A stretch of DNA of 17,786 nt from a virus: the UHGV virus genome UHGV-0019208. The stretch is one strand, 5' to 3'. The notes under the pieces were generated by a model that saw only the letters and a list, made by a program, of their open reading frames with translations, did no database searches and was not told the origin of the DNA. Position numbers and translations under genes: made by a program. Below, piece by piece: positions 3,800 through 5,581 of the stretch. How positions within the stretch are numbered: position 1 is the stretch's first letter; every line of letters starts with the position of its first letter.

Positions 3800-5581
3800 T
3801 TATATTTTAGCAAACGTTTCTAACGCCAAGCTATCTGTTCTTTCTTTTATTAATGAATCATCCCATTTATGTTCTCTTGCTTCTGACTCACTAACAAACT
3901 CTGTAACTAATTTTAAATCAGATTTTTTATAAGATTCTATTTTTTTGTGCAACTCATAATTTTTGCAATCTTCATTAAGTGAAAAACAGAGTGGTAGTAA
4001 ATTACCAATCATACCCACGACTGACTCGTTAGTTTTGCTTTGAGATGATATGTGTTCCAAAGAAACTATATCCATTTTTAACTCTCGCGTCCCTCGTCTG
4101 ATACGTTCCAATTTGTCAAAAATATAAACAATCAACTTCCTTTGCCCAGACTTTTTATTTGTATAAACAATATTCTTTGAAAATGCTTGTTTGAATATAT
4201 TTTCTGAAGGCCCTTTCTGTGTAAAATAATCTAATGCGTCATTAATAACACCCTCAACATCTCTTTTATTTAATGCCTTATTCATTCTTACTGCTAATAC
4301 AGAATATTTTGCATCGATTCCAGATGGTCTTAGACGACATACTGCATTAAACTTAAAGTGAAATGACTCTAAGGACTTCAAACATTCTATCAGCATTGAT
4401 TGTGTAAGGGCTCTCGGTTTCTCTTTACGTTTTCTAAGTAATGAGAGTACAAATGGTCGAGGAATACTCACATTAAAAATCTCGAATGCTTTTAACGAGT
4501 TGTAAATTTCACGCTGATCAGGTTGAGGCCAGTCATCTGTATTTGGCGCTATTATTTTACAGTATAATTCAACATCATCATATAATTCGTTCAGAAATGA
4601 TGCTGATGACAATAAAGTATTCTCATCTTGAATCTCACGTTTAAAAGCACGATAAAGTTGATCTTCTCCAATATAATTATACTTAGAAAGCCACCACGTT
4701 CTAATATAATCAGCAATAGTGCTATTACTATCCCTAGACTCAATTTGAGTAACGATATAATCCCATTTTGTTTTTGCAATATCTACCGGATATGTTTGAG
4801 TGCAAGTTTGGAATACTTTATTCTTTATCAAATCAATTGAACTTAAGTTTATCCCTCGAGCATTCAACACTTCAAAAATATCATAAGCATCATCCTCCTT
4901 ACCTACAGATATTTTTACCAACTTCAAATAATTGGTAATCATTCTATATACAGCAGTCAAACAAAATATATAATCTTGGTTATTATAATGTTTTGCACCA
5001 TCTCGCAACAATGCAGAACAGAGTGATTTCCTCCCTAGTTTTCTAGAAAGAAAAATTCCTGCATAACTTATACGTACATCCTCTTCACAAGATTCATCAA
5101 CTTGATGCTCTTCGCGATCTTGATATTTTAACTTAAAATATGTTCTATCGCTATTTTTTGCTAATTTTTCAATAAATGTCTCACCATTTGAGGCTAATTG
5201 GCTTCTGCTAAATGTAGGACTCACAGTAACGATATATGTTTTAAATATATCATCCGCTAATGAATCTTGCCCTAAGGAACGCAATTTACGCGATATTAAT
5301 GAAAGCAATATAGTAATAACTGAAAATCGTTGTTGTCCATCAACCACTTCTAATACATCATCACTATCTGCTCCAGAAAGAACAATAGTCCCTATAAAAT
5401 ATTCTGAACACTCCAAGTTCTGTCCATCTTCATTCAACCTTATGTTTCTGACAATATCTTGCCATAATTCTTCAAGCTGAAGCTTTTCCCAACTAAACTC
5501 ACGTTGATTACGTGGAATAACATATCTTTGTTTTACAGATAGAATGTTTTTTATATTTAGTGGTGTTGCATCAAAATTCAT
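3800..5581 (-). CDS. DUF262 (ParB-like NTPase) + DUF1524 (His-Me finger nuclease) protein; GmrSD/BrxU-like type IV restriction or defence nuclease
   Basis: 593 aa. N-terminal YVIPRNQREFSWEKLQLEELWQDI...LEVVDGQQRFSVITILLS is the DUF262 signature, including DGQQR. C-terminal SLEHISSQ...IGNLLPL...N resembles the DUF1524 motif. RBS GAGGA 6 nt before the ATG (complement of 5581..5579). The gene is very AT-rich against a GC-rich phage backbone. Confidence 0.75.
   Translation of the reverse strand: MNFDATPLNIKNILSVKQRYVIPRNQREFSWEKLQLEELWQDIVRNIRLNEDGQNLECSEYFIGTIVLSGADSDDVLEVVDGQQRFSVITILLSLISRKLRSLGQDSLADDIFKTYIVTVSPTFSRSQLASNGETFIEKLAKNSDRTYFKLKYQDREEHQVDESCEEDVRISYAGIFLSRKLGRKSLCSALLRDGAKHYNNQDYIFCLTAVYRMITNYLKLVKISVGKEDDAYDIFEVLNARGINLSSIDLIKNKVFQTCTQTYPVDIAKTKWDYIVTQIESRDSNSTIADYIRTWWLSKYNYIGEDQLYRAFKREIQDENTLLSSASFLNELYDDVELYCKIIAPNTDDWPQPDQREIYNSLKAFEIFNVSIPRPFVLSLLRKRKEKPRALTQSMLIECLKSLESFHFKFNAVCRLRPSGIDAKYSVLAVRMNKALNKRDVEGVINDALDYFTQKGPSENIFKQAFSKNIVYTNKKSGQRKLIVYIFDKLERIRRGTRELKMDIVSLEHISSQSKTNESVVGMIGNLLPLCFSLNEDCKNYELHKKIESYKKSDLKLVTEFVSESEAREHKWDDSLIKERTDSLALETFAKI

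Follow-up and report, generated by a model that had tools for sequence, protein, structure and literature searches.

Genetic organization of the cos-proximal region

The stretch of DNA analyzed here (UHGV virus genome UHGV-0019208; 17,786 nucleotides, referred to as the window) harbors a P2-like prophage of the 186/Fels-2 type, which encodes CI and CII regulators and whose orientation is the reverse of the P2 map (Table 1). The gene of interest, whose product is designated the nuclease below, is situated between the portal gene, gpQ, which ends at position 3763, and the cohesive-end site, cos, at positions 5702 to 5720, as had been claimed in the original prediction. The latter site was placed by means of Salmonella phage SEN8, the annotated cos of which is identical to a 19-mer of the window; the “putative cos site” occupies positions 1 to 19 of the SEN8 record, the end of which aligns at window position 5721. 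The cos 19-mers of P2 and 186 gave no match in the window with up to three mismatches allowed.

Table 1. Genes, motifs, and sites of the window in positional order
Feature	Position	Strand	Remarks
gpP terminase ATPase	963-2729	+	
gpQ portal	2726-3763	+	Left slot boundary; Pfam Phage_portal
Cargo module	3764-5694	.	gpQ-cos slot of the P2 gpA-gpQ hotspot; defined by SEN8 homology end, GC drop, and variable content
Terminator-like hairpin	3771-3795	-	Stem of 11 pairs, then a T-rich tail; terminator scan
GmrSD-superfamily nuclease gene	3800-5581	-	593 aa, ATG start; intact ORF; Pfam and PADLOC matches
DUF1524 His-Me finger nuclease domain	3824-4210	-	aa 458-586; Pfam GmrSD_C (PF07510)
Predicted catalytic core	3974-4057	-	E509-H510 via N527 to N536; conserved residues
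DUF262/ParB-like NTPase domain	4811-5554	-	aa 10-257; Pfam GmrSD_N (PF03235)
DGQQR motif	5327-5341	-	aa 81-85 (VVDGQQRF); within the DUF262 domain
Shine-Dalgarno GAGGA	5588-5592	-	6 nt 5' of the nuclease ATG; by reading the sequence
cos cohesive-end 19-mer	5702-5720	-	GGCGTGGCGGGGATACGAG; same 19 bases as the cos annotated in Salmonella phage SEN8
PD-T4-7 homolog	6115-7173	+	352 aa; full-length PADLOC PD-T4-7 match, E 2.8e-144
DinI-like gene			Between the PD-T4-7 homolog and gpA in listed order
gpA replication endonuclease	7934-10348	-	
Dam methylase	10345-11274	-	
Early-region genes			Between Dam and CI in listed order
CI repressor	13693-14325	+	
Integrase, P2-type	14327-15343	+	

Homology to SEN8 ends about 8 nt past the cos 19-mer, and a megablast search of positions 3700 to 7300 against a phage collection identified sequence shared with other P2-like phages solely at positions 5695 to 5846 (150 bp, encompassing cos); in the same search, neither of the two cargo genes was found at high identity in deposited phage genomes. 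The content of the slot between gpQ and cos varies among related prophages. In Escherichia coli SCU-172, whose prophage backbone is 98% identical to the window, the slot holds genes for a TIR-domain protein and a hypothetical protein, while it is occupied by a reverse transcriptase and a hypothetical protein in Klebsiella phage 4LV2017 and by a putative HNH protein and a hypothetical protein in SEN8. The GC content is 0.31 to 0.34 across the nuclease gene, compared to 0.53 to 0.59 (about 0.55) in the flanking terminase and portal genes. The further claim that the gene represents AT-rich, horizontally acquired cargo was thus upheld, both by its composition and by the exchange of slot content between near-identical prophages. 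Rousset et al. (2022) and Vassallo et al. (2022) have reported a cos-proximal gpA-gpQ defense hotspot in P2-like phages, and the nuclease gene is one of its swappable, AT-rich cargo genes.

The cargo previously associated with this hotspot, i.e., old, tin, and the systems reported in the two aforementioned studies, occupies the same cos-adjacent locus and follows the same pattern of swappable, AT-rich defense genes. While old and tin are located on the gpA side of cos, the nuclease gene is located on the gpQ side; in the present prophage, the gpA side is occupied by a homolog of PD-T4-7, recognized at full length by PADLOC and without a match in Pfam, NCBIfam, or PHROG. Independent defense cargo is, therefore, present on both sides of the cos of this prophage.

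The nuclease gene and gpQ are convergent, and the terminator-like hairpin sits between their stop codons (bounded by positions 3763 and 3800) and is common to both genes. Scanning of the 113 bp upstream of the nuclease gene, on its own strand, returned no sigma-70 consensus promoter at the scan threshold, the best candidate found by eye matching the consensus at 8 of 12 positions, and expression of the gene in the lysogen is, for this reason, an assumption.

Domain architecture and predicted fold

The nuclease is 100% identical to RefSeq protein WP_001008289.1 from E. coli EC16. A search of NCBIfam profiles returned no match to the nuclease, and the sole match among PHROGs was a family of unknown function. 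Pfam, by comparison, assigned residues 10 to 257 to GmrSD_N (PF03235; E 2.1e-32; 113.3 bits against a gathering cut-off of 33.2) and residues 458 to 586 to GmrSD_C (PF07510; E 1.1e-11; 45.2 bits against a gathering cut-off of 23). The combination of DUF262 and DUF1524 that had been proposed from the sequence was, consequently, recovered with both domains above their gathering cut-offs, which disposes of the refuting outcome named with that proposal (a profile search without DUF262/DUF1524 hits), and the motifs on which that proposal had been based are also present. The N-terminal DGQQR NTPase signature corresponds to D81 to R85, while the C-terminal EHI...GNL...N His-Me finger-like motif is represented by SLEHIS (E509-H510-I511), IGNLL (G526-N527-L528), and N536. 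In an alignment of homologs (n = 28, with identity to the nuclease reaching down to 36%), residues D81, G82, Q83, Q84, R85, E509, H510, N527, and N536 are invariant in all 28 sequences.

An AlphaFold2 (AF2) model of the nuclease was computed from this 28-homolog alignment, and it displays a mean pLDDT of 85.6 and a pTM of 0.59, the latter value implying that the mutual orientation of the domains in the model is uncertain. The model consists of an N-terminal alpha/beta domain, followed by a long helical middle region and a C-terminal part in which strand 506-510, strand 528-532, and helix 533-539 adopt the beta-beta-alpha(-metal) finger arrangement that the His-Me finger-like motif had suggested. 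When compared with the PDB using Foldseek (E of 0.001 or less), the model retrieved solely DndI (3.7e-17), SspE (approximately 1e-13), and BrxU (approximately 1e-5). Membership of the nuclease in the GmrSD superfamily is confirmed by both domains, their motifs, and the fold.

Placement within the GmrSD superfamily

Comparison with defense system profiles allowed a more precise placement. The PADLOC HEC-06 model PDLC04154 aligns with the nuclease over its full length (residues 3 to 587 against profile positions 7 to 558 of 569; E 7.4e-75), and three additional PADLOC HEC-06 models also match it. The PADLOC “Orf5” models rank second after HEC-06 (E 5.8e-66), the dndI gene of the Salmonella dnd cluster having first been called orf5. 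Matches to the PADLOC models for SspE and for generic type IV enzymes (mREase_IV) are partial, with E values of about 1e-14 to 1e-15 (2e-14 for mREase_IV). Similarly, a 28-homolog profile aligns with DndI (PDB 9JFL) at full length with an E value of 1.5e-37, while no chain of BrxU (7P9K) was returned by that profile at an E value of 0.01 or less. The nuclease shares 17% identity with DndI and 11 to 12% with BrxU in the fold alignments, and 24% (E 1e-27) with the experimentally tested HEC-06 protein, WP_096851903.1, across the first 400 residues of the latter.

By sequence and fold, the nuclease belongs to the HEC-06/DndI branch of the superfamily and not to the BrxU branch. The earlier designation “GmrSD/BrxU-like” is, accordingly, appropriate at the level of the superfamily but does not hold at the level of the branch, where HEC-06 and DndI are nearest and BrxU is reached by fold only, at an E value of about 1e-5.

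The HEC-06 protein is a single chain in which DUF262, a helical linker, and DUF1524 follow each other in the same order as in the nuclease, with the DGQQR and EH(I/C) motifs of the two proteins in corresponding places. The likeness extends to the lack of the RLFDS motif of BrxU, the aligned stretch in the nuclease being EELWQDI, and to a gene that functions alone. The two proteins differ in their genetic surroundings: the tested HEC-06 member sat inside an Hma system, whereas the nuclease is P2-prophage cargo. DndI (orf5) of Salmonella enterica Cerro 87 (PDB 9JFL), which is the closest solved structure and the top match by both profile and Foldseek, is of the same size and domain order as the nuclease and shares the DGQQR and HNH motifs with it. 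In contrast to the nuclease, however, DndI has its gene alongside dndBCDE/FGH and uses Y25 to sense phosphorothioate; this position is occupied by asparagine in the nuclease, in the vicinity of which no dnd genes are found. GmrSD (EcoCT/Eco94) and BrxU share with the nuclease the pair of Pfam domains that take their name from GmrSD, and, as stand-alone, modification-dependent, NTP-stimulated nucleases, they provide the working model for the nuclease, although the latter lies outside any BREX context and matches BrxU by fold and not by sequence profile.

Distribution of the nuclease gene

Among 5,426 complete E. coli genomes, 50 contain the nuclease DNA at 99% identity or higher, annotated as encoding a “DUF262 domain-containing protein,” and the P2 hotspot table of Rousset et al. 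(2022) includes WP_001008289.1 under the label “DUF262/DUF1524.” A full-text literature search for the accession WP_001008289 returned nothing, its appearance being confined to that supplementary table. The nuclease and its location are, therefore, already catalogued, with entries in RefSeq and a published hotspot table, and the gene is an ordinary member of a known hotspot; the modest additions made here are its placement in the HEC-06/DndI branch and the presence of independent defense cargo on both cos sides of one prophage.

Orthologs with 83% (Enterobacter kobei) and 69% (E. coli and Salmonella) identity occupy the same slot of P2-like prophages. More distant homologs, with 38 to 51% identity, are solitary genes found in a Klebsiella lambdoid prophage, on an IncFII plasmid, and at chromosomal sites in Aeromonas and Enterobacter, and no dnd, ssp, BREX, or Hma genes were identified beside them. 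No cognate modification enzyme was identified either, the nuclease gene being solitary in the window as well as in eight homolog contexts. The prophage-encoded Dam methylase is a backbone gene, which is also present in prophages without the nuclease.

Proposed function of the nuclease

Functional information on this branch is provided by HEC-06 (Payne et al. 2024, bioRxiv 10.1101/2024.01.29.577857; WP_096851903.1), which defends as a single gene and is reported to block T4. Its defense is abolished by the substitutions Q79A and R80A in the DGQQR motif and E471A and H472A in the EH dyad, the equivalent residues of the nuclease being Q84/R85 and E509/H510, respectively. A Bacteroides homolog of HEC-06 defended against T-even phages relative to the unmodified T4-GT7, a result that may not carry over to the nuclease.

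With its two-domain architecture, invariant residues, fold, cargo status, and solitary context, the nuclease is likely to represent a stand-alone, NTP-driven His-Me nuclease of the HEC-06/DndI branch which serves as exchangeable hotspot defense cargo and which, most plausibly, acts in the manner of a type IV enzyme on hypermodified phage DNA. A type IV mode is favored because the gene lacks a modification partner while host and prophage must both be spared. It is envisaged that the DUF262 ParB-like domain would bind and hydrolyze NTP through DGQQR and that this NTP cycle would control how the protein engages DNA and which conformation the helical linker adopts. The DUF1524 His-Me finger (E509, H510, N527, and N536) would then nick or cleave incoming phage DNA. 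The predicted target is hypermodified DNA, such as that containing the hydroxymethylcytosine (hmC) or glucosyl-hmC of T-even phages, whereas unmodified host and prophage DNA would be spared, and the lysogen and its prophage would, in this manner, be guarded from superinfection. Modified cytosine of this T-even type is probably the target, as judged from distant relatives. Expression in the lysogen, anti-phage activity, and NTP dependence of the nuclease are likewise inferred.

The following considerations temper this proposal. Identity between the nuclease and the tested HEC-06 protein amounts to only 24%, and substrate specificity may, therefore, not transfer from one to the other. Furthermore, DndI, which is nearest to the nuclease among the solved structures, is directed against unmodified DNA and follows a logic which is the opposite of type IV restriction: it nicks DNA unless phosphorothioate, sensed via Y25, stimulates its ATPase and frees the enzyme from self DNA, which is spared by virtue of that mark. 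The nuclease, by contrast, must spare unmodified DNA of the host and the prophage.

Alternative explanations

A defense nuclease of the same architecture might be triggered by a cue other than modified cytosine, be it a different hypermodification (e.g., modified adenine or deazaguanine) or a signal independent of modification, for instance, the free ends of DNA or intermediates of replication. The distance of the nuclease from every characterized member (24% identity to HEC-06, 17% to DndI, and 11 to 12% to BrxU) is compatible with such a departure, as is the substrate range of published GmrSD relatives, which varies. A hint of diversified recognition is also given by the residue at the position through which DndI and SspE sense phosphorothioate, which is variable across the clade, being asparagine in 15, phenylalanine in 8, and tyrosine in 5 of the 28 homologs. 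Yet the sole members of the HEC-06 group to have been tested act on T-even phages, the defense conferred by the Bacteroides homolog being scored relative to T4-GT7, and T-even-like phages are abundant opponents for prophage cargo of E. coli. A trigger other than modified cytosine is, on balance, regarded as rather unlikely.

The sensing position itself invites a more specific suggestion. The P-x-Y-Q-R patch is represented in the nuclease by P23-R24-N25-Q26-R27, in which the sensing tyrosine (Y25 of DndI and Y30 of SspE) is replaced by asparagine. It is conceivable, if improbable, that in the N25 sub-clade of P2-like prophages the DndI/SspE-type sensing pocket has changed so as to read a cue which is neither phosphorothioate nor glucosyl-hmC, for example, another phage hypermodification or a self mark, such as GATC methylation by the prophage Dam. 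In the latter case, the nuclease would constitute a DndI-like “self-marked” restriction module which operates without a dedicated modification operon. The nuclease represents, at any rate, a convenient natural case in which to ask how a DndI-like scaffold works without phosphorothioate.

A DndI/SspE-type effector, directed against phosphorothioate-free DNA and prevented by a dnd or ssp system of the host from attacking self DNA, would be in keeping with DndI (9JFL) ranking first among solved structures by profile (E 1.5e-37) as well as by fold, and with the second-ranking matches to the PADLOC models named for orf5. No dnd or ssp genes are present in the window, however, nor do any adjoin the homologs in the eight distinct contexts examined, and the sensing tyrosine is N25 in the nuclease. 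DndI, moreover, damages cells that lack phosphorothioate, yet the prophage-borne nuclease gene is found in 50 diverse E. coli genomes. A phosphorothioate-dependent DndI mode was, for reasons of gene context and the missing tyrosine, rejected as very unlikely.

A comparably small probability is attached to the nuclease and the PD-T4-7 homolog forming a two-gene system across cos. The two genes occur at 99% identity or higher in similar numbers of the 5,426 complete E. coli genomes (50 for the nuclease and 48 for the PD-T4-7 homolog), and they are adjacent among the genomes listed in both searches. They are, however, divergently oriented, with cos and 530 bp lying between them; EC16 encodes an identical nuclease with a different neighbor, the 83% and 69% orthologs have unrelated neighbors, and PD-T4-7 and HEC-06 have each been reported to defend as single genes. 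The co-occurrence is explained by the clonal spread of one prophage lineage, and functional pairing was rejected on the basis of gene context.

Lastly, a role in the phage life cycle, such as host DNA degradation or homing, was brought to mind by the position of the gene beside the packaging site and by the putative HNH gene in the same slot of SEN8, but it is hardly credible given that closely related backbones without the gene show it to be dispensable, that its composition is foreign to the phage, that homologs also occur outside phages, and that defense has been demonstrated for the family (HEC-06).

Additional features of the prophage

Several further observations were made on the prophage and its relatives. 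The E. kobei prophage L005, which carries the 83% ortholog, harbors at positions 2017 to 3027 a gene for a 336-aa protein of the PAPS_reduct family between Dam and gpA; this gene is absent from the window and from L004. The Dam methylase ORF of the window specifies 309 aa when read from its first start codon, compared to 285 aa in related prophages, and its true start is probably internal.

Between the P2-type integrase gene and the prophage end at approximately position 16010 lies an ORF specifying 216 aa (positions 15358 to 16008, plus strand), with a GC content of about 0.31. Its product matches phrog_21256 (unknown function) alone, with no match in Pfam or PADLOC, and it is present in 2 of the 5,426 complete E. 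coli genomes, occupying the minor integrase-att cargo site that was mentioned in a 2026 NAR paper. The window from about position 16011 onward matches all 5,426 E. coli genomes, which suggests that the prophage boundary lies near position 16010. Beyond it, positions 16191 to 17564 encode a second tyrosine integrase with Arm-DNA-bind_3, Phage_int_M, and Phage_integrase domains. No tRNA gene was identified in the window.

The maximum coverage of the window by any complete E. coli genome is 72%. The left part, to about position 13331, matches prophages of the IMT16316 type, which carry both cargo genes, and the end containing the immunity and integrase genes matches that of SCU-172. Two lineages are, therefore, combined in this mosaic prophage.
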